Positions 30,988 through 62,908 of a DNA stretch of 64,000 bases are shown piece after piece (position 1 is the stretch's first letter; every line of letters begins with the position of its first letter). The notes below the pieces were generated by a model that searched no databases, was not told where the DNA came from, and saw nothing but the letters and a program-made list of their open reading frames with translations. Position numbers and translations under genes: made by a program. Origin of the DNA: Trypethelium eluteriae (taxonomy: Eukaryota); the NCBI GenBank assembly GCA_051942245.1, contig JAVECL010000014.1:1-64000 (forward strand), in the 5' to 3' direction.

Positions 30988-33354
30988 TTAGGAAGCCAGC
31001 AGAAGCGACGAAGCACGCTCCGCAACAGCGACGATGAGAGCGCTAGGATTTGTAGATCCGATGAAGGGGAAAATTGACGCGTCAACAACGTAGAGATTAT
31101 CGGTTCCATAAACCTTAGTGTTGGTATCGACAACGGAAGTACCGCCCGTAAGACCGCTATCTGTGCCCATCTTGTTGGTACCCACCCAGTGATTGGCCGT
31201 GCGACTCGTGGTGATAGGATCCGCATTGACATATTCACTGATGGTTTGGTTGGTGGATGGAACGCTAATGGTGATGTTTGGGTCAGTCTGAAGTGCCTTA
31301 ACAACTCTCTCGAGACCGGTGATGACGGCCGCTAAGTCGTCAGCATTCTGGAGGTAAGGAAGAGTTGAAGGCGTCATGTCGAGACTTGGTGTGATAGTCA
31401 GACGACCGCGTGAAACAGCACCACGTCCGAGATATTGTGAAATAGTCATAGATTTGTTCGTATCTCCCTCCACACGAGCGGTGTATTGAAGCTGGCGAGT
31501 GACCTTGTCCGCGCCGACGACTGTATCCCAGAAGATAGGCTGAATGTTAGGAGCGGACTGAGCAAGCATTCCACTACGATGTTGGATGTAATTCTGCGCG
31601 TCGGACTGTATTGGGGTATTGTATGCAGCATAGTAGTCGTAGAAGGTAACATTCGGGTGGGTAATTTGGATGTCGGTGTCTGTGTGGTCACCAAGGTTTT
31701 CGCCCACCGGTAAATTGATCCACTGCTTGCTGTTGATCATCTTTGGACCGTCAGAGCTAGCATTGACAATGGCCAGCTGGTCCGCGGGCCCGATACCGCT
31801 CCGAAATAGAATCTTGGGGCTTCCATATGTACCTGCAGAGAGAATGACACGGCCCGTATTGGCAGTGACATTAATGGTTCCACAATAGCCACCGTTGAGG
31901 AAGTTTTCAACCTCGACACCAGTAATATGGCTTCCATTCCTAATGACCCTGTTAACGGCAGTGTTCATAATGAGTTTGAAGTTCTTGCGGGCATTGGCAG
32001 TGACAAGGTAGGTGGCCATTGGACCACCTCGCTCGCCATTTGAGTACATCCAGATGCTACGGCTATAGGTCATGGTTTTCTCATTCGGCACCTGATTAGC
32101 CTCGACGTTCTTCCATCCTGCAGCACCAAGAGCACCACCAACGATGTCAAGCCCCTCCGGCATATGAAGTACGCCATCCATAGAAGGATTGTCGTTCCAC
32201 GGGATTCGAGAAAAGACTTTTTCAACGTTGGGTTTCATGTCCGTAGCTTGCCATCCCGTAGGGAAATTGTAGTTCCAATCAATATCTGGTGCATACCACC
32301 AGAGACCGGAGTTGATCGCAACACCTCCGCCAAGGACACACCCAGCCATCACACCGACGTCGGGGCAAGCGATGCCGGCAGAATCCTTCCAAATTTCATT
32401 GTCCAAACCAGGGACATCAAAACGGGTGAGGTTAGTACTGTTGAGCCAATCAGGCCTCAAAGTGCCACCCCAACGATGAGAGGATGGAGGACCCTTCTCA
32501 ATTAGGAGCACGCTGTGCCCAGCTTCCGAGAGTCTGTCAGCAAGAGGAATGCCACCAGCGCCAGCTCCGACAATGATGTAGTCGTATGTCGTACTTGGTG
32601 CCGTTTGAAAGGAACCGGCTGCGCATGCAGTCGCTGTAGCAGTTGCGGTAGTGGTCGAAGTTGGTGAAGTAGGACTTGTTGTCGGCGAAGCCGTGGGTAT
32701 TTTGGAGATGTACGAAGAGTAATTAGACAGCTGAGCACCGGCAACGGGTAGACCGTATTCACCCATGCTGTCATGCTGAATGATGGTGGCATCAGAATCA
32801 GTAACCGGAGAAGGATTGGTATCGGATTGAGCCCAGCCGAGGACTAAGGCTTGACCAGTTACGGGAAGCTGGGAACCTGCAGTACCGCCTTGATTCCAAG
32901 CCAAGCACCACTGGCATCGGTATGTGAGAGTGAAATGGGTATCGTTGATGGTGTGGGCAATCTGGGTGAGTGTCGCATTTCCAGTGTAGATATCTGGCGC
33001 AACATAGCCCGAGGCGTATCGAAATGAAGTCTGAATCTGCTGTCCATCGACCCAGGCTAGCAGTAAAAGAGAGGATGTCATAGGGCCCGCATGAGAGATA
33101 CCAGTCCATCCGGCGCCAGAGGTTCGGGCGCCTACCAAGTATCCGAGATATTCGGCTTGAGAGTCGGTTCCATTTGGTAATGCCACACCAAATTGAAATC
33201 CTCCAGCAGTCTCGGACGAGTCTACAGAGGCTCTAGAAAAGGGAATGCCAGAGCTAGGGTCGATGAAGCTGTCAATGGCAGCTTGGGCATAGGCACTGGT
33301 GGCCCAGAGGCCCACAAGAAGGGAAACATTGAGAAGTGTATTGGCTAACTTCAT
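30988..33354 (-). CDS. cdh: Cellobiose dehydrogenase (AA8 cytochrome + AA3_1 GMC domain, no CBM1), intronless
   Basis: Signal peptide; cytochrome domain with GPM and QHD heme-ligand motifs; Thr-rich linker; YDYIIVGAGAGG; catalytic ANHW and TNP motifs. Confidence 0.95.
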   Translation of the reverse strand: MKLANTLLNVSLLVGLWATSAYAQAAIDSFIDPSSGIPFSRASVDSSETAGGFQFGVALPNGTDSQAEYLGYLVGARTSGAGWTGISHAGPMTSSLLLLAWVDGQQIQTSFRYASGYVAPDIYTGNATLTQIAHTINDTHFTLTYRCQWCLAWNQGGTAGSQLPVTGQALVLGWAQSDTNPSPVTDSDATIIQHDSMGEYGLPVAGAQLSNYSSYISKIPTASPTTSPTSPTSTTTATATATACAAGSFQTAPSTTYDYIIVGAGAGGIPLADRLSEAGHSVLLIEKGPPSSHRWGGTLRPDWLNSTNLTRFDVPGLDNEIWKDSAGIACPDVGVMAGCVLGGGVAINSGLWWYAPDIDWNYNFPTGWQATDMKPNVEKVFSRIPWNDNPSMDGVLHMPEGLDIVGGALGAAGWKNVEANQVPNEKTMTYSRSIWMYSNGERGGPMATYLVTANARKNFKLIMNTAVNRVIRNGSHITGVEVENFLNGGYCGTINVTANTGRVILSAGTYGSPKILFRSGIGPADQLAIVNASSDGPKMINSKQWINLPVGENLGDHTDTDIQITHPNVTFYDYYAAYNTPIQSDAQNYIQHRSGMLAQSAPNIQPIFWDTVVGADKVTRQLQYTARVEGDTNKSMTISQYLGRGAVSRGRLTITPSLDMTPSTLPYLQNADDLAAVITGLERVVKALQTDPNITISVPSTNQTISEYVNADPITTSRTANHWVGTNKMGTDSGLTGGTSVVDTNTKVYGTDNLYVVDASIFPFIGSTNPSALIVAVAERASSLLLAS

Positions 33355-36126
33355 CTTGGAAGTTGACAAAGGGTGCTCAGCACGACCAAAAGAATGACTA
33401 GACAGGACGCCAAGACTTCTGCTATTGAAGAAAAATTGAAGGACGAAGGACTAATAAATAGGAAGAAGATAGCAAATTGCGTGGGGCAGGGAAAAAGGGA
33501 GGAGAAAGTCACCAGACCGTGATATGCAATTCCTGCCTAGTAAACATGCAGAGTGCTGACGCCTGGCCCATACCAGCAGATGAAAGGAATTGTTTTGGTC
33601 TAGACGCATGGATCAACACAAGATGCACTTGCGCCTCACGAAGAGGCTATGAATCTCCCTCCACATTGAAGGACTATGGTTGGACGAAGCGGGCCGGCGG
33701 TTGTGTCTCCATAGGTACAGGACCCTGCTTCATTGGAGGGACGTGGGGACATCCTGTACTACCTTCTTGTTTCAATAACTGGACGAATATTGCCTGCAGG
33801 CGGGCCCGAGAGATCAGTTGAAAAGAACGCATATGGCAGGGTCACATAGACACTTCGAGGGTTCAGTGATTTTGCCGCCAAGTCTGGCGAAATGAACTTT
33901 TGAGTGTCGAGGCAGCATCGGACCTATGAGAAGAGATGGCAATAACATTAAGGCCCCAAAGGCCGGGCGGGTGGGTGTGAAATAGATTAGAAGGGTAGAA
34001 GGCTCCAGCTAGGTACCTAGTACACACCCTGGTCGTCCCCAGTTTTTCCGCCGGTTGAAGCCGAATCGCTTGCACGAAACCGCACAATCAAGCTTTCGCT
34101 TACCAGATAAACAATCGATATCCTGGTTTGCGTCCTCCAGTATATGCAAAATGACCCATCAAAAAGCAGTCAAGAAGCAGGAGCATCAATACGCCGCGAC
34201 TTGTTTGAGACAGAGCTTTCTTCGTCAGCCACATCGGCATACGCCCTCGTGAAACGCGTGTCTTCAGCCGCAATGCCCCATAGACTCATCCTCGCAACAA
34301 TACGATACTCATTATCCTTTGCGACTTTCAACCGCGAGGTAGCTTTTCCTGCAATAGCGCTGTAGCATCGTTCCGCCGGTCATGAGGATGACCTCGCATT
34401 AGCGGCATTACTTGAACCAGTCAAAAGAAAACTACCTCGTCGTCTACCTAGTAAGTAATTCAATTTACTATCCGGCTAAACTGCTCTTCATTCTATCAAG
34501 CTGCTACGCTATCTGAGCCAGTTCTACCCGCAACGACAGTAATTATAGGTTTGCACGCGCCGCGGTTGCGCCCAAAAGCGTCAGATCATCAGTTCCAGAA
34601 ATCCGAGAACGCTATTCATATTCATACACAAGAGTGCGCCGTGTGCCGGATTCCGGATTGCTCGCGTCGGCTGTGGCGCCTGTAAGTATCTCCGCACCTG
34701 CTCTTCTTTTTCCAGACTGGTCCCGAGGATATACTCATTAACGGAGGTAAACACTGTTAGCCAGTGTTGCTCTTAACGGAATTCTTACTCAGACCTGTAA
34801 CATGGTGATAATTAGGCTACATCAGGGCATGACGGGCACTCTGTCCCGTCACGATTCTTATCCAGTCAAGCCTCAAGTACCTCTCTTGTGCCCAAACATT
34901 GACTGTATGGGGTCTCAAGATGTGATACTCCTGTAGATCTCTCAGCCCAATGGACGAAGGGCCTCTATCTTGCTTAGGATTGCCCAAAGAAATGGAATGT
35001 CATACTCGATGGCCGATGCGGTCTTGCAGGGTGCTAGAACAATTATGCCATGAAATCGACCCACCCCGGTTACCAGTCTGACTGCCGGCTTGCACGTGGA
35101 TCTCCTCAATAGACTGGACTCTGCAGCTCAATTGCCGCTAGCTGGTGTTAAGCTCCAAGGGCTTTTAGCCCGGCGCTGACGCTTTAACCATTATAAACAT
35201 CCATACCCGGAACCAGAGCAAGATTTTTTCTTACCGAATTGACAATAGCCCCAAAGGCCGCGACGGACTTACGTTACCCGTTCAAGGCTGGCAGTACTTC
35301 TCTTCATACATGGCCCATTAGTAAAAAGAATGAGTGAGCGACGAACACACAAATCCGTCACTTGCAGTGAGAGGCAGAGCTCTCGTGGCTCCTCTAAGCC
35401 CGCACAATGAGAGATCCAAACGATCGCTGAAATCGACATTAGATTGAAGAACCAGAATCATGGGAAAGGACGGCTCTGAGAGATATTTCCAAGGTAGCCA
35501 ACTTTTCAAAAGAAGGCCTCGAAATCACCTCGATATCATGGCGATTTGAAAGATTCGTGTTACACCAACCATGAGGAAGCGGCCCTCGATAACGACGACT
35601 TTCCTACTGGCGCAAGTGGGACATGTGATGAAGTAAATCCGTAGAACTTCAGCATAGGACTATAGAGACTCTTCACAGTACCTTGCTCTGGCCCTGATCA
35701 GTCTGACTCTGCATCTGTTCCGACGTCCTAGCGAATTCACCTCAGACGTGCGTGTGTTTTCGAAAGAGATATCCAGGAAAGTGAGACGTCGGTGTGATCC
35801 TAATAATGCCGAGTGAAAAGGGAAAAGGAACGATGACACGTAAGATCAAAAGTTTCACGCACAATTAAAGGGGCAGCACGTCATTCGATCCACCTTGTCG
35901 TTTTCTACTCTAGCAACTCTAGCACATTATCACCACATAGTCTATAGGCCTATGAACCTTGTCTCCTGGATTTGCGAAGCCAGCTCTTCAATGACACAAG
36001 CATTTAGGTGGGTACACCCAAGCAGAAAGTCACAGTCTTCCAATTCCCCTTCCTCCAGTCCCCTATTAAACAGCAATGAATGTCAACTGCTATTCTCATC
36101 ACGTATTGCTGTGTTGGTATCTTTGA

Positions 36127-47390: not shown

Positions 47391-48575
47391 TTAAGGCTCA
47401 CAGTCACCATCATCCCCATCGTCCCCATCAGCAGCCGATGCTGCGCTTTGGGCTGCAGTCGTGGCTGAATAGGGCATGGCAGGACTTGCCTCCGACGTAG
47501 TGGGATTGAAATCACCGTCCTCGGGACACTCTCCGTCGTCATCCTCACCAGGAGCTCCTGCAGTAGTAGCAGCAGAAGATGGTTTCACGCTAGTAGCGAG
47601 GGTAGTGGGAACAGTAGTGGTGGTTGTCGATGAAACAGACGCGGTTATGCTATTGGCAAACGTACTAGCAGAAGCGGGAGCGACATCACTGGACGTGGAG
47701 CTGATCGAGGAGGCCGCTGTCGGAGCAGCTTCCACCAGAGATGAAGATGAAGTGGTAGCAGAGGACGAAACTGGTGTACCTGACGGGGCGACAGCAGAAG
47801 AAGGCGCGGCTGTAGAAGCCTGTGATAGGACGGTAGACGTCGCGACCGCACCAACAGACCAGACAGTCGGTCCGGGAACAGGGTAAGTGGAAAAACTACC
47901 ATAAAGATTGAAATGAACACCCGGGTCGCTGTCCTTGTATGCGCCAGGGAACGACACGCCAGCGGGCATAGCGGAGCCAGAACCTCCTGAAATCTTCAGC
48001 TGTGCACACTCAAAGTAAAATTGAGCTCCACGAGCGGAATTTTGGTCGTGTAAGGTGTCTGCTTCATGCAAGGCAATGATCTCCGGCCTCAGGAAATAGT
48101 TACCGTCCGCGACATCAGGAACGATGATACTGTGTTTGCCTTTATTGGAGATCAAGTCGTCTACAGCCCATCTCTTAGATGTTGCGTCATAGCCATGTTC
48201 AGCAATCTTTTGCCATATAGGACCGGAGCCTTGCGAAGAGGTCATGGGGGCCATGTAAACTTGAACCGGTCCTTTATGAGATGAAGCAATGATGTCGTCG
48301 CTGGCATCACGCGAATTGTGGTGCCACTCGAAAGTGACGTTATCACCGGGCTTGACACTGACATACTTAGGTGCAGGTACATTGTTGACGTTGCAGGCCA
48401 TATCGGGCGAGGTCAGGTCCTTGACAGGATTGTTGTTGGGGGGGCTCCTGATGTAACCGGTTCCGGTATTTCCAAGTCCTTGATCCACATCATTTACCCA
48501 CAGGGCATAGAGAGTAGTATGCGCCTGAGCAATGCTTGCGGCGACTGCAAGCGTTGAAAAAACGTAAGACTTCAT
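47391..48575 (-). CDS. AA9 lytic polysaccharide monooxygenase with a long S/T/A linker and acidic tail, intronless
   Basis: Signal peptide ends AQA|H (His1). [29 protein letters not shown] and [10 protein letters not shown]. Confidence 0.95.
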
Positions 48576-50071
48576 AGTTAAAGAATGGCAATAAAGAATA
48601 TTGGTAAAGACAGACTGGAAACGAAAAGGTTGCAGTAAACTGTACTGATGTCAAAGTAAAGAGTACCCGAACGAAGGAGCAGAAGGTACACCACAGACCT
48701 TATAAAGCAGTTTTCAGGTTCTTGAACTGAGAGGCATTTCCGGCCTGTTCGAGACCGAGTTTTACGAAGGACCGCTGGAGGCGGCTTGAGGGAGCTCTTG
48801 GCACTATATCTCACGCAACACCAGGCTCGCGAGGCGCTTGGCTTAGCGACACTTGACAGAATGGCGACTGTGTGTATGACTGGACTGTGCTCATAAATAG
48901 GACAAAGTGTGTTAGGAGGCTAAGTGGTCTCCAAACATATTCCTTTCTCGAAGCGACGCGGCACTACTGTATTAGGAAGGGCTACCTGTTTACGGAGTTC
49001 TACTGTAGAAGGGGAAGGCCCTAATTAGCACGTCACATTGGTGGTATATCCATGGAAAGCGGCTCTCGTGCTGTTCTGATTGGTACTGACTGGTATCCAG
49101 AGATTTCATGCAATGCACGGTTAGGGTTATCTTGAAGACGGTGTGGTAGATTATTGCGGAATTTCGCCGTCTTGGCAACCCCTGAGGCGATCAGTGGGAA
49201 ATGAGAACACGTGACAGCCCTAGGTAAAGGCACCTACCACCTGGCAGGTAGTTTCGCACAATGCTAAAGAGTAATAATTGTTCTTTAGGATCCCCAAGGA
49301 TCAGCAACGGGCGAAGAGGTATGCAAAAAGGTGAATTGGAAGAGCGCATATCTGGAAAGGACCAAATGGGGTACTCTAGGATATCGTATCATGCGTACTC
49401 CGTACTCCTCACGAATTCCGCCATTCCCTCATCCGGCTGCGCTGCTCCTTATCAAACAACGCTTAGAGATATCGGCGCATCGAACTGCATCAGTCGCATT
49501 ATCTATTAAAGTAGGGAAATCTTCCACTGCCTCGTCACTGATACTACCCAAGCCGCCTGGCCTTCCGTCCTCCCAGATTCACAGTACTTCTTATCGCTAG
49601 GCGTTTCACCATCGTCAGGTCCAGGAACTGCCCCTACATTCACCGCACTAGGCCTCCAAAAGCGAAAGTGCACAATATACCCTAACTACCAGAGTTTTGA
49701 ACAAACAGTTCGCAGCACTGGGCATAGCGGGATGATAGCTTTCTCGGCCGGAATGCCTTGTTGCGACCTCGTCACAACGATGGACTTCTCGATCAGTGAA
49801 TGCATATATCTACTATCTTCGAGCCAAACATTGCCTTCATAGTGGCTCTCGCTGATACCTTTACCCTCAAATTGTCCAAGTGACAAACTTGGTCGCATCC
49901 CTTCCAGGAGGAATCGTGAACAGCTTTGCATGCATTGCATTCCAAGCGGATATCAATGTGGCAAGCTCAGAACCGGCAAAGCTGAAGATCTGGCTGGACA
50001 GGAGCACCAACTGGTTGCAGAGAAGATCTTACTGCGGTTTCTCTCGTACAATGAGAATACTAGCGAGCAAT

Positions 50072-51564
50072 TCATGTGGCCGACTCTTCTCCTGTCTTCT
50101 TCTCGCGGTACACATCGCCAGTCAACCTGATCTCAAGCTCAGCATCCTTCCCGCGACCCTCGGCCTCAAGCTTCCTGACCAGTGGCAATACCTCACTTCC
50201 GAATTGCTCTACTTCCACTTCGTAATGAAGAAAAGCAGTCAACAAGATATTCACCCCCAGACTCTTCAACAACAAAATACGATCCGCAATTTGCTCCTTC
50301 GTTCCAATGAGTTTTGTTCTAAATCCGTCGTTATACTGAACGAGATCCTCAAATTTGGAGTTCGCCCACATTCCCGTCTTGTTGCTCGTACTAGCGCCGG
50401 CATTCTTGACTGCGTCCCCAAAAGCCTCAACCGCCTCTTTGTTGGCCTTGCCCTGAATCTCCTGCAACACCTGCACCGCTTCTCCTTCGGTTTCACGACA
50501 AATGACGAAGCCATTCACGGCAAACTTCACATCAGTTAAACGGCCTTCTCGCTCGGCGCGATTTTTAACGTCTTTAATCTGCGTCTGAAACCCCTCGAGC
50601 GTATTCCCATTCATGAAGTAATAGTCGGAGACGCTAGCAGCGTTTTCGCGCGCGTCAATGGAATTGCCTCCTTGAAAGATCTCGGGATGTGGGCGTCCAG
50701 GTCTCGAAATGGGCTTCGGCTGGAGAGGATAGTCGTGAAACTTTTTCGTGTTCGTTAGCGCTGTATAGACAACCTCTTAAGCGACTGCATAATTTACCTG
50801 ATAGAAATCGCCACTAAAATTGAACTTCTCCTGTGTCCAGATGCCCTTCAGACATCGGATGAACTCATTGCTTCGCCGGTATCGTTCGGCATGATCGAGC
50901 CACCATTGGCCAATGCTAGTGAACTCTGCCTTGAACCATCCGGAAACGATATTCACAGAAATCCGACTGAAGCATGTCAGGCTTGCACCATTGAACCAAT
51001 ATCCTCGGAATCTAGCTCACCCATTCGTGTATTGATCAATGCTCGCAATCTGCTTAGCTGCTACTGCTGGATTCCAGGGGCCAGGAAGAAGTGCAGCAAT
51101 TACGTTGAGTTTGGAGGTAAAGTGGAGCAAGGCTTGCGAGATTGAGACGGACTCATGTTGATGGTCCTATGAAGCGGGGCCTTGTCAGTAACTACTCTGC
51201 TTCATGAGATTAGAGCTCGCTCACAGCACCGTAGCCGGCCATGAATCGAATCTGTGACAATGCGTATTCAAAGCCAACCTTCTCAGCAATCTGAGCATAT
51301 CTGATGTTGGCGTCAAGAGTCCAATCAGTCTGTTGTGGGATTTTGGAGATAACAAGACCACCGGACACGTTCGGAACCCAATATCTAGGTCACGACATCA
51401 ATTCAATGACTCTAGGAATGGGAAGATGCATATAAGTCTTACGCAAATTTGATGCGATTTGGGTCTGAGTTCAGTTGATTAGCGTGATCCAATCCATTGT
51501 CCAACCCTCCATTGACGATTCTTCCGTGAATACCATTGGTACTACTTGTGGCCATTGTGGACAT
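50072..51564 (-). CDS. sfnG: SfnG-type dimethylsulfone monooxygenase (bacterial-luciferase-like, FMNH2-dependent), 4 introns
   Basis: Spliced translation IKFAYWVPNVSGGLVISKIPQ, GFEYALSQIRFMAGYGA, QHESVS, LPGPW, NIVSGWFKAEF, LDHAERYRRS, PEIFQGGNS, FEDLVQYNDGFRTKLIGT and FLHY. The ORF track shows only the last exon. Confidence 0.9.
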
Positions 51565-52134
51565 CTGGACAGAGGTACTTGTTGGTGCAAGAGAGGCAGA
51601 GTAGATTGATTAAGAAAAATAAATATGGGAAGCTCGACAAAGATAGCTTTCGTCGGCATACCGTGCCATGGTTTTCCTACCTGACATGCCCATTAGCGCA
51701 ACTAGCGCATCACTTACTATATCTATATCCACGACATTAGGGAGACCTCCAGCCGTCGACGCTTGTGTGGCTGGTATACTTGGAAGCAAGCTTTTCGCGA
51801 GAATTTGCAATACTTCGTCATAGCATGAGCCAGGTGGTAAGGTGGGGGTAACGACACAGGTTCATCTTGACCGATCGGCGGATTGCCGACATACAGGAAG
51901 TTAATCTGTCCGATGCCCACGACGATGCAGCGTGCCCTGCTTGACGAAGGAAAGCTTCTGAACCCTGAGATCCTCTGTGGTCCTCATTCGCTACCAATCC
52001 TTGAAGAGATCATTTCATCAGGCCTAGATTTACTCCACTGAAGGAAGTGAGAGACATCTACCGCAGAAAGTTGCTGTACTATGCCGACAGCCTGTTTGGA
52101 CGCATACGTGAACATAGCATCTTCTTGGTGAGCA

Positions 52135-52144
52135 ATGGCGTGAT
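52135..52144 (-). promoter_or_regulatory. CYS3/MetR-like bZIP site ATCACGCCAT upstream of sfnG
   Basis: The + strand reads ATGGCGTGAT, about 570 bp upstream of the ATG. It resembles the Neurospora CYS3 consensus ATGRYRYCAT. Confidence 0.55.
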
Positions 52145-52802
52145 CAAAAGCCTAACATCGAGCTGCTAGACGTTTAAGGGATAGCGTCGTCTTAATTGTC
52201 AATCACTTTGGCCTTGATCGTCCAGTAAATCACCAAATGCCTATCTAAGTCAGGTTGTGCGTTCGTCGAAGAGTTGCGGAGGGCTGGAGCTTACCAGGAT
52301 ATTTTTGTCATCTTGCATCGGGCGGGCCAAGAATAAACAGACTGACTGTAAAATTACGTGCTCTTAAAGAGCAGGCGTATTGAAACTTATTTCAGACAAT
52401 GAACCAAGCAATCGTAGATCTCCACAAGAAGTGACAGCAAGAAACGTCGATAGGGCTCCCTGTGAAGGGAAGATACGATGGCTGAAATATTCGCCTATAA
52501 CAGACTATGGCTTCAGGTTCGACTGAGGCCTCTCTATTTGCAAAGAGAACAAATAGGAAATTAGGTAGCTCTGCCAATAATTTTCGCCAGGCATCTTATC
52601 AAGTTCGCCGCTGCGATTTTCAGCCCTTTTGGCGAGAGGCCCCTGGCTTTGCGGAAGTCAAAGTATTGGCCACCTGGTATCACGAAGTATCAGTAGGATT
52701 GGTATTTCTGTATTTCATATCCACGAGCCCCCCATTGCCCTGACACTGCCGATATGAACATCAAAGAATAGGCAAGGTGTAGCGATCAGCACGATTTCTT
52801 GC

Positions 52803-54217
52803 TCAGATCGTAATAGTTGCACGTTCAATAGAGGTATCCGACGGAACAACAACGCGCTTCCCTGAGATCGTTCCCTTTCGCAGCAGATCTAGCGCCTCAT
52901 TGATTCCATTCAAGCCTCCCATGGCAGTCTCGACTTCCGGGGGCAGTAATTTTCTTGCCACTAAGAGCTTCTCGAGCAAGACCATCAGACATTCGCCAAC
53001 CTGAGGAACATCATGAAATGTTTTGATTGGTACTTTGTGAAGGACCACATTGTCAGTCGGAACTTTTGGGACGCCAGTAAGTCCCGCGAGATGCGATTTT
53101 CGACCGTCCTCGGCTGTTGTTGATAGACATTCCTGTAACCGTGTTGCAGTGTCTTTGCCAACGGTATCGAGTCCAAATCTAAGGGAGCCTTTGGTGACCC
53201 CTCGTATGATAGCTACAGCACGGTCGGTATCGTGACGATCGACTAGAAGATCCGCTCCAGCTTGAAGGAGCTTATCCCCGTGGCGAGCGACGTCGGCTAC
53301 GCCAATCACGCGTAAACCACAAAGTTTCGCCAATTGTAGGGCAATCATTCCTGTAGCAGATGAAGCCCCCCAAATGGCAATCCAGTCTCCAGCTTTAACT
53401 CGATCGAGTTCTTCGATTCCATTGAGACACTCGTCCCGAACATCTGTAGCTAGAGCATTCGGATCGACTTCCCGGAGAAGATGAAGTAGATTCGGAGCGC
53501 GAAAATAGCTACCGATAGTCGAAAAATCCAGTCCAAAGCAGATACCGAGAGTAATAGCAGCAGTAACGTAGGCAACGCCCATAACCGCACTGCTTTGAAT
53601 CGGCATATCTCTCGGGACTCGAGCCGCATTATGCTCAGGACTTATGGAAAATTCTTGAAAAGCCGCTTTGCGAATATCACGATAGTCTGTAGACGGGCTA
53701 AGGACCTGGGTTAATGTTAGGTACTTATACAATAGAAAAGTCAGAGTGGGAGTATGTACAACATCGCCAACTCGTATCCTACGCAAGCGCTTATGCGCCT
53801 TCACGACAACGCCAGCCATGTCTCGACCATTGATCCAGGGTAATGATGGCAGTCCGAAATTGAAGTCCCTTGACACCAATATTAGTCAGTGATAATGATC
53901 GACCGTGCTCAAGACTCACGGTCCCTTCCAGTCGATAGGATTCAGCCCGATAGCTATGACCTAAATTCAGCTAGCAACATTGTAATTCCAGCTGCATACA
54001 CACGTACTTTGACTAGTATTTCGGATGGAGAATTCAGAGAAGGTATCTCTTGCTGTGAGGTCAACCTATATTGTTGTCCAGGTCCATGAATGAGCAGGAC
54101 ATCTTGTCCTGGCGACCCAGGCCGGGTAGGTTCATGCCCCTCGAGCTCGCGCTTTGTAAATTTTGGGGCCATGCTCTCCATGACCAAACGACTTTCTTCC
54201 TCAGTCAAGATGTCCAT
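52803..54217 (-). CDS. Medium-chain dehydrogenase/reductase, non-zinc enoyl/quinone-reductase-like
   Basis: Spliced VIAIGLNPIDWKGP; GRDMAG (lacks the GHE zinc ligand); IWGASSATG Rossmann motif; ISGKRVVV. Three introns. Confidence 0.88.
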
Positions 54218-54537
54218 GGCTAAATGAGAGGAACGTGCAGCTAGGATCCAGCTGCTTGGACAACTCTAATGACAATTATGATGAACAAGAGGAATGAGAA
54301 TAACATCATCAAGTCTCTTTAGAGCTTTGGCGCTTTGCTCGATGATGACGAAGGCGGCTCGAATACTGTATCGAAAATATGGACGTTATCGCTGTATGTT
54401 ACCGATAATGGTAAAATTATCAGAAATATACAACAGCCATCTTTGTAGGTCATTAGACCTGCGCGGGGGGAGCTTATAATCCTCTGCCTTCATTCGCCAA
54501 AATCCCGACGATCGTGACACTGGCGACAGTTTGGTTG

Positions 54538-54547
54538 ATTGCGTGAT
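54538..54547 (-). promoter_or_regulatory. CYS3/MetR-like site ATCACGCAAT upstream of the MDR reductase
   Basis: The + strand reads ATTGCGTGAT, about 320 bp upstream of ATG 54217. Confidence 0.5.
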
Positions 54548-56524
54548 GAGGGGCTCTCAGGCCGCGACATTTAAGCGCGATTGACCGAGTTTAGCACCCC
54601 AAGAACTCAATATACCACAGAATCGAACGTCCATAGCTTCGATGAGGTGCTATCGAAAAGGGATGCTGTCAGAGCCGTGGGTTTGGTGCAGGCCTAAAGT
54701 ATACCACTGATGCAGGTCGATGTGAGCCTCAACGACGATGATAGTAGACGAGGCACCGCGGAAAGACCAGGTCAATTGCTTGTACAACCTAGAGATCCTA
54801 CGCTGAACAGATCTGCTCTCGGAGAAGTGGCCATATCCTGGGCTCTACAGTCCGTGCTTCTTGTCCGCTTCGTCTCATTCCTCCCGGACCAGAGCCAAAA
54901 CATCTTCGCACTCTGTCGACGAGGGAGAGTAATATTACCCAGAAAATGCCAAGAAAGAATAGAGCGTTACAGTCTTTTGCTTGAGGACTTTGGATGAGAC
55001 AGAATTAGTTCTCGTACCAGGGACCATCAAGTAACAGGTCAGAAATCCAGTGAGTAGCCGAAAGTCATTCGAGAATGCGGAAGCAACTGCGAACTATAGA
55101 AGGCTCTCGCGATTGGGGCTCTTGCGATGACCCTGACGACCTCGTCCCTATCACTCACGGAACAGTGCAACTCGACCACTACCGATATCTTTATTGGAAA
55201 CATTTTCTTCGTTGCAGGGAAAGTTGTGGTGATATCGACACGATGGGAAACGATTTTTGGAACCACTCTGCAAATACAGTCCTATCAGCATTCAGTCTCT
55301 TCTAAGCAGAATTCGGGGCCATCCTCACTTGAAACATTCGGTGTGGAAGAGAGTCATGGATCCGATCTCGTATCGTACAGTAACAGCCCCGGCTTTTGGG
55401 TTTTCAGTGGTTCTTTTTTTCGAGAGCCTCTAGAGCCTTGTTCCGATCTCATTCTTGTGTTGACATTAAATGTCTCCGACTCGGTTCGCAGTGTGGGTAG
55501 CTTGGGATGCTCTCTTTCTCATAGGATTCACGTCTCCGTACGTCAAAGGGCATCACCAATCGAAAGACCTATACGATGTTGAGCAAGTTAGTAACCTTAT
55601 TTACAGTGGGGTATTCTTTACGGTGAAAATGGTCTTTACATTAGTGGCTGCATCCTATTTAGCATCTGCAGACGGAATCGATAACACTTCAACTGGGATC
55701 AAAGAGGCAGCAGACGCCATTGCTTTCGTGATGGGGATGCTGGGGTATCATAGGGTCGGCAACTTGATGTCTCAAGACGTACTAAGGCTTGGATTGCCAA
55801 TAGGAGATACCGGTCATTTTTTGAGAGGACGAAGTAAGCAATACTTCAAACAAGTAGGAGAGACTGTAACACTGGTTAAGCTCTGGAGTAGATAGCAGCG
55901 ATCTCGCGTTTGTCATGTTGTCCGGGCAACTGTCTATCAACAAATCGATGCCTAGCTGGGAGTGTAATAAGAAATGTATGCTCTTCCGCAATTATTTAAG
56001 GCGACTAGTATTTTGACCTCTTCATATTTCCACGAATTTCGGGCGTCTCTTGGAAGATCCTTTCACGCTGTCGAGGAGAACAGGCCGTTATGACGTTGAG
56101 AGAGAATTGGTCAGAAATGTCCCAAATATCCCTTTTAAACTCTGTTTAATCCGAAAAGTCATCAGCAAAATATTGAGCCTTATAAATCCACCCAAGTTTT
56201 CTTGTTACCACCCATGGTATGTTTTCAGCCGTTCTCTTATCTACTCGCTGCCTCTCCTGTTCGACTGCATTCAGTAGATCCAACTCAGATGAAGCTCGAA
56301 GGACGCTCGCGAAGCTTTTTCTTTTCGGTAAGGGCGGCATGAATCACGCGAGAGCCGTACAATGGTGTTGGTCTCGTAGCCAACGAGCAGACTGCTGTGA
56401 CAAGTACCTTGGTTGTATTTGGGTTGTCCCATACACATGGGCTCTCTCAGAATGCACCTAAAGATGGTGCGCTGATCTTCGTCTCATAAGAAGCCTGGAG
56501 AGCCACTCAGTATCGAGCGATACT

Positions 56525-56576
56525 CCGCATCACGCAATCTTGCTCATCCAGATCAACGCCGACCGCATCACGCCAT
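56525..56576 (+). promoter_or_regulatory. Paired CYS3/MetR-like sites (ATCACGCAAT 56529-56538; ATCACGCCAT 56567-56576)
   Basis: Direct repeat CCGCATCACGC(A/C)AT, 160-200 bp upstream of ATG 56733, with a third weaker copy ATCGCGCCTT at 56585. Confidence 0.6.
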
Positions 56577-56732
56577 TCGATGTGATCGCGCCTTTTGACG
56601 GCGCGCAATTCTGTTTATTAAGACTGTGACCTTGATTCACAGCTGCAAAGCGTCCAAATTTGGGGCTAGGTAATTTCTTGAACGTCCTGTGGTTCTTTCG
56701 GTTTTTGCATTGAAACGATCAAGTTGAACAAG

Positions 56733-58463
56733 ATGTCTCCAAGCGCAATCGACACATCTCTCCAGGCCACAGATCCAGCTGTATATGATGATCACTTCAA
56801 GGTATTTGCGAGCTCAGTACTGCCGCAGACTGAAGAGGAATGGATCTTGCGGGCTTCCAACATTGCTCAAATCCTTGCTGAAGACGTGAGCACCCGTGAT
56901 AGAGAGCAAAAGATCCCTGAAGCTGAAGTTGCACTCCTTAAATCGTCGGGACTTACTAAGATCCTTGGTCCCAAAGCTTTCGGCGGCGGTGGTCAAGCCT
57001 GGAACGTCGGATACAAAGTCATTCGCGAGGTCGCGAAAGGCGACGGTTCACTTGGGATGTTATTAGGATATCATTTGCTTTGGTCCTGGACGGCGCATGT
57101 AGTCGGCACAAATGAGCAACGCGACCGATTCCAGGAATTGATTATCAAGAACAATTACTTCATTGGAGGTGCTGTAAATCCGAGGGACAGTGATCTGAAC
57201 ATCACCAGTGAAAATGAACACGTAGTTTTCAATGGCTTCAAGAATTTCAATACAGGAGGTGTTATATCTGACCTAACAGTTTTGGAAGGGGTATTGGAAG
57301 GATCCGATGCACATATCTTTGCCTTTTGTCCCACTCAGCAAAGTGGCATCCAATTTGCGGTGAGTCCATCTCAAGCGTCACAGACCTCCAAGAATACACC
57401 AAGAAAACACCAAGAAGCACCTTCCCGCCTGTAGTCAAGCATCCAAGTTTGTGCAAATTGGTTTGCTGAGCTCAAGCTCTCGGTGTGGTTTGTAACCTGC
57501 GAGCGGCAACGGAGTTTCAGAGAATTTGCGGCCAAAAGCTCGGAATTCGTACAATCCTTGCAGGTTTGATCTTAAGTGGTGGTCAGACTGAAGAGTCATG
57601 TCAACAGAATAGATAAATGAAAAGTTCGACTGGTCGAGATACGCTAAGATGCTTCTTGATGGATGCCCTGAATCCTGCCCAACTGAATTAAATGCGGCGA
57701 AACGTTGCAGGCTTGCTCTTCTAACGTGTTTTGTAGCATAACTGGAATAACATGGGACTCCGCCTGACAGAATCGGGCAGTGTCAAGATCGATCGAGTAG
57801 CCGTACCTTGGGAAGACGCCTTAGGTTGGGACCCGAAGCTTAAGAAGCCCCTGGCTGAATTTTTGGATACTCCCTGGGCTAGCCTCCTCCTTCCAACGTA
57901 AGTCTCTTTGCCTGTCTGCATCGAAAATCGCTGACGATTGGTTCCACTTCAGCATTCAACTCGTCTTCTCAAATTTCTATATCGGCATTGCTCTGGGTGC
58001 TTTAGATTTCTCTCTCAAATATACGAAAGCAAATACTCGCGCCTGGCCCTTCGGAGGTGATAACAAAGACTCTGCCAGCGATGAATTTTACATCTTGGAG
58101 CGCTACGGTAACTTTTTTGCGCATCTCCGCGCAGCCGAGGCTCTTGCTGATAGAGCTGGCATCGTCATCGCAGACTTGTATAATAACAGGTCAGAGGAAC
58201 GTGACATAACGCCTCAAGAGCGTGGTGAGGCAGCAGAATGGGTAGCTTCCGTCAAGGTCGTCGCGACAGATACAGCCCTGAGGGTAACAGCAGGCGTCTT
58301 TGAAGTTACCGGAGCAAGAGCGACTGCAACCAAGGTGGGCTTGGATAGGTTTTGGCGAGACGTTCGAACGCATAGTCTTCACGATCCTGTGGCTTATAAG
58401 AATAAGGAACTTGGTCGTTTCGCCTTGCTGGGAGAAATTCCAGCTATAACATGGTATACTTAA
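56733..58463 (+). CDS. Acyl-CoA-dehydrogenase-fold flavin monooxygenase, DszC/MsuC/SfnB-like
   Basis: LLKSSGL, FGGGG, DGSLGMLLGYH, GAVNPR, GFKNFNTG, WNNMGLRLTESGSV and GLDRFWRDVRTHSLHDPV. Introns 57360-57736 and about 57898-57952. Confidence 0.9.
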
Positions 58464-59035
58464 AGCTGCTTATCGTTCGGCAAGTTTCCCCTCGGATACT
58501 CGCCATTTATAGTCAGCTCACTTAATAAAGGATTTGGTCATCGTTTTAGTACGGAGTAACACTTACATCGCATGAATATTCTGAAATCTGTCGTCGCCCA
58601 CGAGCAAGTGCTGCGATGTGGAAGGCGATTAAAGGTGCCTTATACTTGCCATCGAAGCTACTTCTTGTCATTACCGTGAGCATAGGAGAACGGCTCGGCT
58701 TGGTATCTTAAGCTGCCACTTGCTGTCTATACAGCAGGTTCGCCGGTAGTCATGCATTTTTGCGATTTCCACTACCTTCCGCCTCCTATGATGCCTTACC
58801 TTTGAAGTATTAGTACACTCGAGTATGTTACAGTACGTTCAAGCTTGGGGTCTAGAATTACCAATAGGTAGAAACAGGAGCAGTTCAAATACCGCTCGGA
58901 CGTGAGACACACTTAGGTTTAGCGCCAACAGGAGCATCCTCAGGACTGCAAGACTCTATCAAGCCAAAAATGGACAATTGATAAAACGTCAACAACTCTT
59001 ATTGCTCGAGGTTATTGCCACATGGTTCTGATGCA

Positions 59036-60067
59036 TCACAACTCTACTACCAACTTTTTGCCACTCACGCCTTTGTCCAACTTATCAAGCGCACCCTGGA
59101 GGCCCCCGAGTCCACCTGCAATTTTTTCGATCTTCTCTGGCGCCAATAGCTTGTCTGCTCGTCCAGTGCCCAAATACTGACCAAGCGAACCATAAAACCA
59201 CTCCCGAAACTCCTCATATTCGGGTCGCTCCATGATACTCGGATAGCTCTCCATACGTCGCTGCACATTTGCGGGCAAATTTGGGGGCCCAAATGGTGGG
59301 ATCGTGGTGTAATATTCACCGCCCGTCTCCGCCAGGACCTGACCGAGAATGGTTGTGACTGTAGGCAACCCAATGGTATCAAAGACAGCGTCATACGGCC
59401 CGGCCGCCTTCAGTTCGGCGACGATAGTCTCAGCCGGTTGCGTGTGGTCAATTACTCTGGCTGGCTGGAGAGAGTTCACGGTCGCCGAGTTGGCTGGGGA
59501 CGAGGTCGTGATGACGGTATAGCCAGCGCTGATGGCAAAGTTAATGGCAAAGCCACCGACGCTGGAAGATCCACCATAGATGAGGACTTTTTTAGCCTTG
59601 TTAGCTGGATTTGGACCGGTGGGGTTCGGGCGGTCCAGCTTCAAGCTGATGCCCAAAGCGACGGCAGCGGTAGCAAGATTGACTATGGTGGCTGCACCGG
59701 CCTCGAAGGTGGTGTTGTCTTCAAGTTTGGAGGTCGTCCGGGAGTCAGCGATAACGTACTTCTGGTATGCGCCAGAGGTTGGTTTCATGCCCATAGCGGA
59801 AGATCGTTCTACCGCAACGCGATCGCCAGGCTTGAAGGCGGTAACAGAGGAGCCGACCTTTTCTACCGTGCCAGCAAATGACAGGCCGAGGATGTTTGGG
59901 TAGGGTATGGGGATGAGGGAGAGCTTTTGGATCTTGGCCTCGATTGGATTTAAACCAATGACGGCATTCTTGACCAAGAGCTCATTCGACTCTGGGACGG
60001 GGAATTCGGCCGTGTCAACCACGAGGTTCGCCTTTTCCTCCTTCATCCAGGCTGCTTGATTAGACAT
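59036..60067 (-). CDS. MDR enoyl-reductase-like oxidoreductase (ToxD/YLR460C-like), intronless
   Basis: GLNPIEAK, YPNILG, VLIYGGSSSVG and GVSGKKLVV. Confidence 0.88.
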   Translation of the reverse strand: MSNQAAWMKEEKANLVVDTAEFPVPESNELLVKNAVIGLNPIEAKIQKLSLIPIPYPNILGLSFAGTVEKVGSSVTAFKPGDRVAVERSSAMGMKPTSGAYQKYVIADSRTTSKLEDNTTFEAGAATIVNLATAAVALGISLKLDRPNPTGPNPANKAKKVLIYGGSSSVGGFAINFAISAGYTVITTSSPANSATVNSLQPARVIDHTQPAETIVAELKAAGPYDAVFDTIGLPTVTTILGQVLAETGGEYYTTIPPFGPPNLPANVQRRMESYPSIMERPEYEEFREWFYGSLGQYLGTGRADKLLAPEKIEKIAGGLGGLQGALDKLDKGVSGKKLVVEL

Positions 60068-62908
60068 GATGGAAGACTTGAGTAGAGAAGCTTGGAGTAT
60101 AGATTTTCTTCCCCCTGGTGTGGATGAGGCAATGCTTTATTGCTTGAGTATATGGCTGTCAAAGATGAGAAGATTTGCAAGGTATTGTGCCAGACGGATA
60201 TTGGGATTCATCGGCGACGAGCAAGGCTTTATATACCAACTTTAACTCCGCCCGGACCTTGCTTGTCGTACCAAAGCCTTCTATCTCCTGGATCCAAATC
60301 CGAGGTCCAATGGGTCACGATGGAAGTGACGAAGGTACTTGCCACTTGCAGGCAGCATGATCGTACGTCCACGATTTCGTCATCGTTCAGTCGCATTTCT
60401 TCCTTAACAAAGCTACCGAGATGACCAAAAATCGCATCGTACTCGCAAACATAGGTGTAGTGATCGGTGGTTGAATGTACTGACCAATTGTTTTGACGCT
60501 AGATAAGCAGAGCAAGCTGACAAAAAGGCATCGGCGCTCGGAACTGTTGGAGCTCCGCGCTGTTGGCGCAAACCTCGGGCATGATATTCTTGGAGGCGCC
60601 CGATTCCTACGGGCCCGAAAACTCAAAAAGTCTCCCGCCTACCTTACCTAAGGTCGTCGGGATGGAATCTGTCAGATAACGTGACGTAGCAATAGGTCTT
60701 GGAGGCGTTCGTCTTTGTAACAGAATGAATCATTGACTCCAGATATGCATTTGCTGTAGCAGGTACGACCGTATTGCATATCTTTTTTAACTCTCAGTGG
60801 ACCAGGGGGGTGCCTCATCGGATGAGACTGTCGTACCTCCACGCTCTGATTTAACAATATAAGAAAACAGACTTTATATTCAGCAAATAGAGGTACCATT
60901 TAATTTGATAGCTTCTATCCTACTTGACCTTGATTTTGGAGATTGAGAGTCGCGCAACAAAGGAACCTTCAAGCTCTATTTTACGCGCGCGGTTTTTTCC
61001 ATTCTCAACCGCGTGCCGACGAACTAGAGTAACAGCCCAACATTCATAACGGGGTCTCGCATCGCAGTTTCGGGATATATATTACAAAGTAGCATGGTTT
61101 CAACTGCACATCTGCGTCTCAAAGTGCTCAGGAGATGGAAAGCAGACGATGACTGATCTTACTGTCACCCAAAGGCAAGTACTTCAGCAAAGAGGTCTGG
61201 GCCTTCGCAACCTTAGCAAAGAACACTTCATCCTCAGCATCCGAACGAATCTGGATGGTGAGATTGGTGGAATGAAAACTGCTTCGGAGAAACTCCCTTT
61301 GTATTCCTACTTCTGGTGGGTGTTTGTGCTTTGACCTTACAGTAGAGTAGAGTACGGTAGGACACTAAAATCAAAGTAGGGTATCCGTAATCTAGGTAAG
61401 TATCGCAAGCGTATCGAAGAACTCCGCCAAATCACGCTAGCGTCTATTGCATTGTAAAATTTCCAGACCATAGATGCCAGCCCGCAGAGTTCAGCACTGT
61501 CGAATGTGATAGACCTGCAAGAACAGAAATTTTTTGTTTAGTCAGGACCACATAGTCAGAGCCACATACAAAAAGTATCCGTACGCAAAAGCCGCAGCAC
61601 TACTTTACTCTTGACTAGAAAAGTGTCTCCTAGTGAGGCATTGTGACATTCGGTCAGTGAATATGTCCACCAATCATTTGTATGGGAGCTACCCTTAAAC
61701 TGTATTATAAGCTGTATTGGAGACGGTCCTTATTACTGGTGACTGAGCAAAATCATAGAGTAGGCATGTAGCCGCGAGACTATCGTAAGAGCCATGTGTG
61801 AAGCTTTGACCTCTTGACCTGTTTTAAAATGCGTTTTATCATAATGCAGTGGCGTAAACACGGCAGAGTAGTGCCTCATTCATTTATCTCGAGCGGGGCA
61901 GGCCAGGTCTTGCATTTTCTATCTAGACAGCCCATGAATTTGACTATTCGACAGAATTTGCAGCAGATCCCAAATACTGTCCTCCTATGGCGAAGCAAAA
62001 AGATCTTCAGCCATTAATCCCGGAATCTTTTGGTATTACTTTAGACCTTGGATAACCTACCATATATATACATACGTTCAACATTTCCCAGTGCCGGCCT
62101 AATGCCCACCTCAGCTCCTCGATGCGTCAAAGCTTGACAAACATGATAATTATACTTTAGCCCTCTGAAGCTATACTGTGTCGCTCCGAGGCAGATGCTT
62201 TGACGCATAGTTCTCAACATCTTCCCCACCCCCACTTTGTTAAAATTAGCCGGATTCGTTTCGAAATAGTGCGAATTTCACGTCCGATCCGGCGAAGAGG
62301 ATTGCCCCCCGCGTCTGATATACCTAGCTTCAGATTAGCTTGATATCCGTCATAAATAGACGACTAAGTGATTCGGACCAGACCGAGGTAACTTCGTGAT
62401 TCTTGAAGCCCCTATTTCATGAACACGTTCAGCTGTAGTCAGGTGGGCCGTTTTCATGTTGGCTTTTGCGGGGTGTCTAAGCCGTATTTTAGAAGTGGGT
62501 AAAGAATGCTTCTATTTGTTGGATAGGGACAGGGCCCACTATTTTAGCTGCTTCATTGGGGTGAGGTAAATCTACCTTGAACACAATGCATTGACCTCCT
62601 TGAGAGGAGTTGTCCAAAGATTGAGCCTCGGGTCGAGGTAATTCTCTTAACATTGTAGCCAGAAAGCTCTCGTGGGATGAGGAGAAGGAGCAAAGCTTCA
62701 TCGAGCGGTCTATACGTGGCTTTGTTGGAGCGAGAATTGACATAGAGCAAGGGAGGTCCGCATAATCCAGAATGTCCTCAATCTATAAAACGAGGCTTGA
62801 CATCTCACTACCACTTGCAAGACATCCTGGACTTGAGCGTTAACCCAAGATAACGTTGAAAGCACCAGCCAAGTCTCAAATCTTGATTTCCCGGCAATAC
62901 TTTCTACG

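Follow-up and report, generated by a model that had tools for sequence, protein, structure and literature searches.

The dimethylsulfone (DMSO2) pathway of Pseudomonas combines SfnG and its reductase (MsuE/SfnF) with MsuC and MsuD, and structures of SfnG have been solved (8t0u and 8t0w). A 64,000-nucleotide stretch of DNA from the lichen fungus Trypethelium eluteriae (GenBank assembly GCA_051942245.1, contig JAVECL010000014.1, positions 1 to 64,000; hereafter, the window, meaning the whole of this stretch) contains three adjacent genes, designated G1, G2, and G3, that form a real and conserved eukaryotic variant of this bacterial sulfone pathway. The assignment of G1 as SfnG, the architecture of the cluster, and the CYS-3-type sites in its promoters are well supported, and sequence comparisons suggest that the cluster probably serves, under sulfur shortage, to obtain this element from small dialkyl sulfones and mainly from dimethylsulfone.

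As in Pseudomonas, the fungal cluster pairs SfnG (G1, with all of the DMSO2-contact and cage residues) with a monooxygenase of the acyl-CoA-dehydrogenase fold (G3, of the MsuC/DszC/SfnB group), and control by sulfur limitation is predicted from its promoter sites. Unlike their counterparts in Pseudomonas, the fungal genes are interrupted by nine spliceosomal introns, a medium-chain dehydrogenase/reductase (MDR; G2) takes the place of the flavodoxin-like or HpaC-like reductase, the cluster has neither MsuD nor SsuD, and in other fungi it also includes a YaaH-type channel. The predicted regulator also differs, being a basic leucine zipper (bZIP) factor of the CYS-3/MetR type as opposed to SfnR/CysB.

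The closest bacterial relatives of G3 are found in actinobacterial sfnG operons, apparently uncharacterized, where they lie beside sfnG. What sets these operons apart from the fungal cluster is that they encode canonical reductases together with an SsuD-like protein and a true SfnB; their SfnGs also stand apart from those of fungi. In Thermobifida cellulosilytica, for example, one locus (L077) contains ssuD-like and ssuE-like genes, a gene for an HpaC-like reductase, sfnG (590.9 bits), a G3-like gene, and a true sfnB (493.2 bits), and the G3-like gene scores 280.8 on the DszC model and 250.9 on the SfnB model.

According to a 2026 study, Acinetobacter baylyi ADP1 assimilates dimethyl sulfide (DMS) by means of Dms1-3, an SfnG ortholog, MsuC, and SsuD; two-component flavin monooxygenases of the TIM-barrel and acyl-CoA-dehydrogenase folds act in series on DMS-derived compounds to yield sulfite, and several of them share a single reductase (PMC13352529). 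Acinetobacter has four group D enzymes, versus one in the fungal cluster. With DszC of Rhodococcus and TdsC of Paenibacillus, the dibenzothiophene monooxygenases of the 4S pathway, G3 shares its fold and its Pfam domains; unlike them, it scores only 275.6 bits on the DszC model (NF043015; cutoff, 850), falls outside the DszC-labeled branch, and has no DszA or DszB partner nearby.

Among fungi, a related described system is the CYS-3 sulfur-starvation regulon of Neurospora crassa, from whose binding consensus, ATBRCGCCATC, the motif of the cluster differs by one mismatch (PMC8550094). In N. crassa, mox-7 (NCU10015, "methanesulfonate monooxygenase") is bound by CYS-3 and induced about 7-fold, and it is at most a candidate counterpart of G1; NCU05886 to NCU05888 are strongly induced and, unlike the cluster described here, of the DszA type (PMC8550094). 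The CYS-3 binding table of that article lists no gene of the acyl-CoA-dehydrogenase type. NCU05888 was considered as an ortholog of G3 and rejected: the text calls it a "dibenzothiophene desulfurization enzyme," and the table specifies enzyme A (PMC8550094).

A 2018 review describes FMNH2 (reduced flavin mononucleotide)-dependent monooxygenases as conserved in fungi and uncharacterized, and it mentions sulfur-linked promoter motifs in yeasts (PMC5857272). A 2025 paper reports SfnG and DszC homologs with neighboring accession numbers in Exophiala, identified by BLAST only (PMC11778650). In NCBI annotation, several of the fungal SfnG relatives already carry the name dimethyl sulfone monooxygenase SfnG. 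No characterized fungal SfnG was found in our literature search. An initial annotation of the window, made from its sequence, had stated that no characterized fungal version was known; this agrees with the search, but homologs were already in print and in NCBI annotation.

Gene models and the SfnG assignment of G1

Gene models were obtained by reading three frames over positions 50000 to 58600. The features of the cluster, with lengths in amino acids (aa) and nucleotides (nt), are as follows, G1 to G3 being our own models.

50072-51564, minus strand: G1, SfnG-type FMNH2-dependent dimethylsulfone monooxygenase, 421 aa, five exons
51564-51443, 51384-51225, 51166-51021, 50966-50798, and 50740-50072, minus strand: exons of G1, separated by introns of 58, 58, 54, and 57 nt
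51565-52802, minus strand: spacer of 1238 nt from the G2 stop codon (52803-52805) to the G1 ATG (51564), containing G1's own promoter
52803-54217, minus strand: G2, MDR reductase of the LovC/quinone-oxidoreductase type, 420 aa, four exons
54217-54008, 53960-53920, 53868-53760, and 53705-52803, minus strand: exons of G2, separated by introns of 47, 51, and 54 nt
56733-58463, plus strand: G3, acyl-CoA-dehydrogenase-fold (group D) flavin-dependent monooxygenase, 432 aa, three exons
56733-57359, 57737-57897, and 57953-58463, plus strand: exons of G3, separated by introns of 377 and 55 nt

All nine introns have GT..AG borders, and all three reading frames close. Public models from a metagenome-assembled genome (MAG) of T. 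eluteriae agree with these structures: P0001 (432 aa) matches G3 exon for exon, and P0121 (418 aa) has the same introns as G1 and starts three codons downstream. A protein of the T. eluteriae MAG is 100% identical to the exon-3 query, and relatives from Aspergillus and Microthyrium span the 377-nt intron of G3 with no residue missing. These models bear out the three genes that the initial annotation had placed at 50072 to 58463, along with the four and two introns that it gave to the two monooxygenases; the three introns of G2 had gone unmentioned. With nine spliceosomal introns spread over G1 to G3, the genes are truly eukaryotic, as had been claimed.

On the SfnG equivalog model TIGR04021 (cutoff, 382.95), G1, in the form of P0121, scores 575.3 bits over the entire profile (positions 1 to 350 of 350), and exons scored singly reach 273.6, 93, and 91.5 bits. 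The next best models, RutA and SsuD, reach only about 130 bits, and the NtaA/DmoA subfamily model TIGR03860 (cutoff, 279.7), a subfamily to which we take DszA to belong, only 98.5 bits. Against the solved SfnG of P. fluorescens (8t0u), the E value is 1.8e-145. Residues reported for that enzyme (PMC11588060) were mapped by hand on the 8t0u alignment, in which the chain index equals the published number plus 23. By P. fluorescens numbering, all three DMSO2 contacts (W121, R55, and N297) and all five residues of the aromatic cage (W11, Y60, F267, W285, and Y296) are kept in G1, as are Q53, N116, G120, H136, Y140, and S189. G1 is thus classed as an orthologue-grade SfnG with an intact DMSO2 pocket, the identity that the initial annotation had given it.

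Conservation is less complete at the flavin and O2 site, where five of eight residues (from the set H136, Y140, S188, S189, N284, N116, T52, and Q53) are kept in G1 (PMC11588060). At three flavin contacts, G1 has N in place of S188, M in place of N284, and S in place of T52, differences that weigh against the proposed pathway. The asparagine at 188 and the methionine at 284 are invariant in 39 fungal sequences, indicating that they are a trait of the clade and not damage, and G1 is read as a probably functional enzyme that acts on small dialkyl sulfones and has a flavin site changed to a slight degree.

Trees of SfnG (37 rows) and of G3 (51 rows) were quick searches with support from the Shimodaira-Hasegawa-like approximate likelihood ratio test (SH-aLRT) only. 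Fungal SfnGs form one clade (SH-aLRT, 99) that falls with sequences from Burkholderia, Methylopila, and Bacillota and is split from actinobacterial SfnGs with a support of 100. The relatives listed also include SfnG-type proteins filed under the basidiomycete Mycena maculata (P0221) and the oak Quercus suber (P0209); P0221 nests within the SfnGs of Dothideomycetes, and either contamination or transfer may account for these two entries.

Conservation of the cluster and its channel gene

Recovery of related loci from metagenomes yielded 37 of at least 6 kb, including several near-duplicates from the same campaigns; 4 are the bacterial sfnG-G3 pair, and 33 are of the fungal type. Four of the 33 (L113, L137, L140, and L148) have the full order of SfnG and MDR on the minus strand followed by YaaH and G3 on the plus strand, and in two others, MDR (minus), YaaH (plus), and G3 (plus) are cut off by the end of the contig. 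The remainder contain SfnG, YaaH, and G3 (2 loci), SfnG and G3 (4 loci), YaaH and G3 (8 loci), or G3 alone (13 loci), such that a YaaH-type channel accompanies G3 in 16 of the 33. Concordant runs of locus tags occur in Chaenotheca (2651/2652/2654), Drepanopeziza (6209/6210/6212), Hymenoscyphus (7131/7134), Candelaria, Mollisiaceae, Alyxoria, Bogoriella, Stromatinia, and Sarcosagium; in Eurotiales, relatives of the MDR are unlinked to G3. Both gene order and orientation thus recur on metagenome contigs and in locus-tag runs from several fungal classes, which was the synteny check that the initial annotation had proposed, and the cluster appears to be conserved across Pezizomycotina. The flanks of the four complete clusters have no further gene in common.

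One complete cluster, L140, has an open reading frame (ORF) for a short-chain dehydrogenase (8108 to 8500, plus strand) between YaaH and the G3 ortholog that is absent from the other three. At 377 nt, the first intron of T. eluteriae G3 (57360 to 57736) is long compared with the 47 to 58 nt of the other eight introns in the cluster, and the G3 ortholog in L137 has an overall span about 280 nt less. This intron contains only short repeats of chance size and gave no plasmid match in a plasmid search ill-suited to such a sequence.

The YaaH-type channel, the fourth member of the cluster in other fungi and one overlooked in the initial annotation, is represented in T. eluteriae by a remnant, detected in tblastn searches for which the PF01184 portions of P0084 and P0036 served as queries.

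55103-55841, plus strand: remnant of a GPR1/FUN34/YaaH (AceTr) channel gene, lying between G2 and G3

Matches to this relic are 36 to 43% identical and come in pieces spread over three frames, with an in-frame TAA (55303 to 55305) inside the best-conserved helix and a stop directly before the first matched residue. Its ORF pieces have no Pfam match, as opposed to values of 1e-36 to 1e-42 for intact relatives. The segment from 55103 to 55841 is a pseudogene. Among the 120 best relatives of G3, seven gene models join a PF01184 domain to a G3-type protein, and it is their channel part that matches this segment. In the public locus tags, G1 is 000622 and G3 is 000624, leaving one number between them; we infer that 000623 is the MDR and that the relic carries no tag.

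The reductase G2 and the monooxygenase G3

The ADH_zinc_N domain (PF00107) matches exon 4 of G2, and P0241, which is 92% identical to G2, has both ADH_N (PF08240) and PF00107. The nearest solved relatives of G2 are LovC (1.1e-15), zeta-crystallin (6.5e-15), and the mitochondrial enoyl reductase MECR, and, as judged by eye, G2 seems to lack zinc ligands. G2 is accordingly assigned to the LovC/quinone-oxidoreductase-type branch of the MDRs, outside the reductase folds known from two-component systems (flavodoxin-like SsuE/MsuE, HpaC-like, nitroreductase-like, and Fre-like).

The initial annotation had treated the MDR as a reductase neighbor of SfnG. The gene is present as described, but it is more than a neighbor, since it is fused to SfnG in many fungi. 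Among the best 120 of 4527 SfnG matches, 42 contain MDR domains, in the order MDR-linker-SfnG, and 43 are at least 580 aa long. When the fusions are mapped on the window, their MDR part covers G2 and their SfnG part covers G1, with a low-complexity linker of 40 to 60 residues. Some fusions are single ORFs that fill short contigs, such as one of 835 aa in a contig of 2654 nt and another of 918 aa in a contig of 2950 nt, and uninterrupted ORFs on contigs barely longer than themselves indicate real fusions as opposed to merged gene models. The two proteins are encoded by separate genes in the window, in Trypethelium subeluteriae, and in Bogoriella. Fusion in 42 of the 120 best relatives indicates that MDR and SfnG are functionally tied.

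Within 8 kb of sfnG in 80 bacterial loci, fetched with their neighbors, there was no homolog of the MDR. No flavin reductase of the SsuE/MsuE or HpaC type was found among the 77 ORFs of the window, and none of the 69 ORFs flanking the four complete fungal clusters matched the Pfam flavin-reductase families. Because bacterial operons put a flavin reductase at this spot, the MDR quite possibly supplies reduced flavin to SfnG, and probably to G3 as well, a role that we infer from the fusion and the gene position only.

It is less likely that the MDR has another function, with a general cellular reductase supplying the flavin; it might, for instance, act on the aldehyde that larger dialkyl sulfones would release, or reduce the C=C bond of an unsaturated organosulfur compound. 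In favor of such a function, and against a flavin reductase, the nearest solved relatives of G2 given above are enoyl and quinone reductases, and our literature search returned only general reviews and no MDR-type free-flavin reductase; moreover, fungi own flavin reductase domains of the HpaC type, one of which is in the Exophiala table (PMC11778650). On the other hand, the short linker by which the MDR is joined to SfnG in 42 of these 120 relatives is the pattern of a self-sufficient reductase-oxygenase, and full conservation of the small-sulfone pocket makes formaldehyde the expected product. Of the two, the flavin-supplying role is preferred here. An AlphaFold2 model of a natural fusion (P0123, from a 25-row alignment) was poor, with a mean predicted local distance difference test score of 65.8 and a predicted template modeling score of 0.46, and was uninformative on contact between the domains.

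The N-terminal extension of stand-alone SfnG (exon 1 of G1, 51443 to 51564) ends in LNSDPNRIKF, the same motif that closes the linkers of the fusions, and bacterial SfnG matches mostly begin only at about query residue 33 to 35. The shared ending is compatible with fission of an older fusion. A second MDR, intronless and LovC-like, lies at 59039 to 60136 (minus strand), convergent to G3; it is 26% identical to G2 and lacks the insert of about 40 residues that precedes the nucleotide-binding domain of G2. Given this low identity, we treated it as a neighbor and not as a member of the cluster. In the four complete loci, no homolog of the cluster MDR was found beyond the G3 homolog.

G3 contains the domains Acyl-CoA_dh_N (PF02771) and Acyl-CoA_dh_2 (PF08028), and its top solved matches, 8cda among them, are all DszC, TdsC, MsuC, or a "probable monooxygenase." It is placed by these similarities in the group D flavin-dependent monooxygenases, within the DszC/MsuC/SfnB group. 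The DszC/MsuC-like label of the initial annotation therefore stands as to group, but not as to DszC or SfnB proper: G3 scores below the DszC cutoff, as noted, and below that of the SfnB model TIGR04022 (224.2 bits; cutoff, 430.9), and it belongs to a separate clade. A search of 1.84 billion representatives for relatives of G3 returned mostly unlabeled bacterial matches, and only 1 of 79 full-length G3-related representatives (P0499, with 431.2 on the SfnB model) passed a curated cutoff, indicating that most of the nearest bacterial relatives are nameless and that the models cannot resolve the function of G3.

The placement of G3 relative to bacterial genes is clearer. In 35 of the 80 bacterial loci, a gene of the acyl-CoA-dehydrogenase fold lies within 8 kb of sfnG, and in 28, all from Actinomycetota, a homolog 46 to 55% identical to G3 directly adjoins sfnG. 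Fungal G3-type proteins form one clade (SH-aLRT, 100) nested among these actinobacterial sfnG-linked genes (SH-aLRT, 98 and 96), in a tree built without MsuC and the Acinetobacter Dms1-3 sequences. G3 falls outside the branch of the DszC-labeled P0391, and Thermobifida SfnB, P0499, and P0486 lie on the far side of the tree. The placement by profile models and trees that the initial annotation had called for thus identifies G1 as SfnG and nests G3 with actinobacterial genes linked to sfnG. We considered a single joint transfer of sfnG and G3 from an actinobacterium; since fungal SfnGs stand apart from actinobacterial SfnGs, and the two genes have different nearest bacterial neighbors in this sample, the idea was dropped.

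Two steps can be envisioned for G3. It may quite plausibly act after SfnG, in the role of MsuC, oxidizing methanesulfinate to methanesulfonate. A somewhat less probable alternative keeps the same pathway and sets G3 upstream, where it would convert DMS or dimethyl sulfoxide (DMSO) to the sulfone used by SfnG, much as DszC acts on dibenzothiophene and Dms1-3 of Acinetobacter on DMS, with methanesulfinate being oxidized nonenzymatically. The upstream position is favored by reports from Acinetobacter that MsuC is slow and dispensable, its knockout having no phenotype, and that group D enzymes oxidize DMS and DMSO to the sulfone (PMC13352529). It is also favored by the summed exon scores of G3 against solved structures, which are highest for DszC (132.7 + 74.6 bits, versus 104.4 + 60.5 for MsuC), and by the score on the DszC model, which exceeds that on the SfnB model. 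Conversely, G3 is far under the DszC cutoff and outside the DszC-labeled representatives, and its tightest and most widespread neighbor in fungi is an anion channel (16 of 33 loci), which suits an anionic substrate better than neutral DMS or DMSO. The Thermobifida ortholog is marginally best against MsuC (264.8 bits, versus 262.5 for 8cda, 251.9 for DszC, and 245.7 for TdsC). Both G3 and this ortholog appear about equidistant from all four enzymes, so sequence alone cannot fix the S-oxygenation that G3 performs and the choice of step is a guess; the MsuC role is the one adopted below.

Promoter sites and the proposed sulfur route

A motif shared by the promoters of the three genes, reported in the initial annotation, was confirmed. 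The sequence CATCACGCMAT occurs 3 times in the 64-kb window, versus 0.10 expected, and none of 100 shuffles reaches 3. All three copies are upstream of G2 or G3, and a copy with one mismatch is upstream of G1. Read one base further, the sites become ATCACGC[CA]AT[TC], one mismatch from ATBRCGCCATC, the consensus obtained for N. crassa CYS-3 by DNA affinity purification sequencing (PMC8550094).

52134-52144, minus strand: predicted CYS-3/MetR-like site ATCACGCCATT, about 570 nt ahead of the start codon of G1, one mismatch to ATBRCGCCATC
54537-54547, minus strand: predicted CYS-3/MetR-like site ATCACGCAATC, about 320 nt ahead of the start codon of G2, in the would-be divergent MDR/YaaH promoter
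56529-56539, plus strand: predicted CYS-3/MetR-like site ATCACGCAATC, about 200 nt ahead of the start codon of G3
56567-56577, plus strand: predicted CYS-3/MetR-like site ATCACGCCATT, about 165 nt ahead of the start codon of G3

The window contains 10 one-mismatch matches to ATBRCGCCATC, of which these 4 fall in the three promoters of the cluster and point the same way as the genes that they precede. The older CYS3 consensus ATGRYRYCAT has no exact match in the window. Promoters of orthologs were scanned in 15 fungal loci (the 20 loci with at least two cluster genes, minus five near-duplicates), which have 14 one-mismatch sites in 34.0 kb of promoter zones and 16 in 216.5 kb elsewhere. A first-order Markov simulation predicts 3.1 ± 1.9 sites for the promoter zones, and 0 of 500 simulations reach 14. 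In L137, the identical 11-mer (ATCACGCCATT) is upstream of both the MDR and G3. The promoters thus carry putative CYS-3/MetR-like sites, which fits control by sulfur starvation. About 30 kb from the cluster, at 19082 to 20792 (plus strand), lies an F-box and WD40 gene with the domain makeup of the fungal sulfur controller SconB/Met30/SCON-2.

Enrichment of these sites in promoters also bears on whether the cluster belongs instead to xenobiotic or secondary metabolism, such as the dibenzothiophene desulfurization proposed for Exophiala spinifera, which we regard as highly improbable. Such a role is suggested by the naming, from BLAST only, of the Exophiala SfnG (KIW15895) and DszC homolog (KIW15893) as dibenzothiophene candidates (PMC11778650), and many database names of MDR relatives are trans-enoyl reductase or polyketide synthase enoylreductase. 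Against it stand, beyond the CYS-3-type sites, the scores of G1 as SfnG and not on the NtaA/DmoA model, pocket residues that suit a small sulfone, and the lack of any polyketide synthase or other biosynthetic gene in the window or beside the four complete clusters.

In the scavenging pathway that we propose, a bZIP factor of the CYS-3/MetR type would turn on all three genes at sulfur limitation. With FMNH2 and O2, SfnG would convert DMSO2 to methanesulfinate and formaldehyde, and the MDR, in the place of an SsuE/MsuE/HpaC-type reductase, would use NAD(P)H to provide reduced flavin for SfnG and probably for G3. G3 would perform the neighboring S-oxygenation, from methanesulfinate to methanesulfonate, and a further enzyme, of the SsuD/MsuD or Jlp1/TauD type and encoded outside the cluster, would release sulfite from methanesulfonate. 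Where it is intact in other fungi, the YaaH-type anion channel beside G3 probably imports a small organosulfur anion; with its channel dead, Trypethelium would rely on substrates that enter without one.

Besides the points raised above for each gene, several results weigh against this pathway. No sulfite-releasing enzyme is present among the 77 ORFs scanned in the window, and the literature search found no expression or enzyme data for any member of the fungal cluster; for this DNA, one DNA run and no RNA run is listed. When up to two mismatches to ATBRCGCCATC are allowed, the window shows no enrichment (90 matches, versus 76.6 expected), and of the 15 orthologous loci, 9 show a CYS-3-like site in the scanned zones and 6 show none. 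A broader reading is more tentative than the pathway itself: the MDR might be a new kind of NAD(P)H:flavin reductase that replaces SsuE/MsuE/HpaC-type partners in fungi, being a separate subunit here and, in many Dothideomycetes and lichen fungi, fused to SfnG to give a self-sufficient dimethylsulfone monooxygenase. With G3 and, where intact, YaaH, it might make up a route that is specific to eukaryotes, is controlled by CYS-3/MetR, and leads to sulfite from the products of atmospheric DMS oxidation.

Other genes in the window include one for an AA9 lytic polysaccharide monooxygenase with a Ser/Thr-rich tail (47394 to 48650, minus strand), which adjoins the cluster, and, 17 kb off, one for a cellobiose dehydrogenase with cytochrome and GMC domains (30991 to 33450, minus strand); together, these constitute an oxidative cellulose-degrading pair. 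The first 2000 nt of the window have a G+C content of 21%, versus 45 to 53% elsewhere, and may represent a repeat-degraded, AT-rich stretch at the edge.

If the MDR does supply the flavin, its fold would be new to the reductases of two-component systems, and nature would already have provided, in the fusions, sulfone monooxygenases that are self-sufficient; otherwise, the fusion would suggest that a second, unknown reaction is coupled to the cleavage of sulfones. When dimethyl sulfide is oxidized in the atmosphere, dimethylsulfone and methanesulfonate are among the major products, and they are rained onto rock, bark, and soil, the surfaces on which lichens and black fungi subsist with scant sulfur. 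A conserved fungal route under sulfur control would bring eukaryotes into a part of the sulfur cycle so far studied only in bacteria, and it would offer an experimental handle on a family of fungal enzymes that the 2018 review called uncharacterized (PMC5857272).

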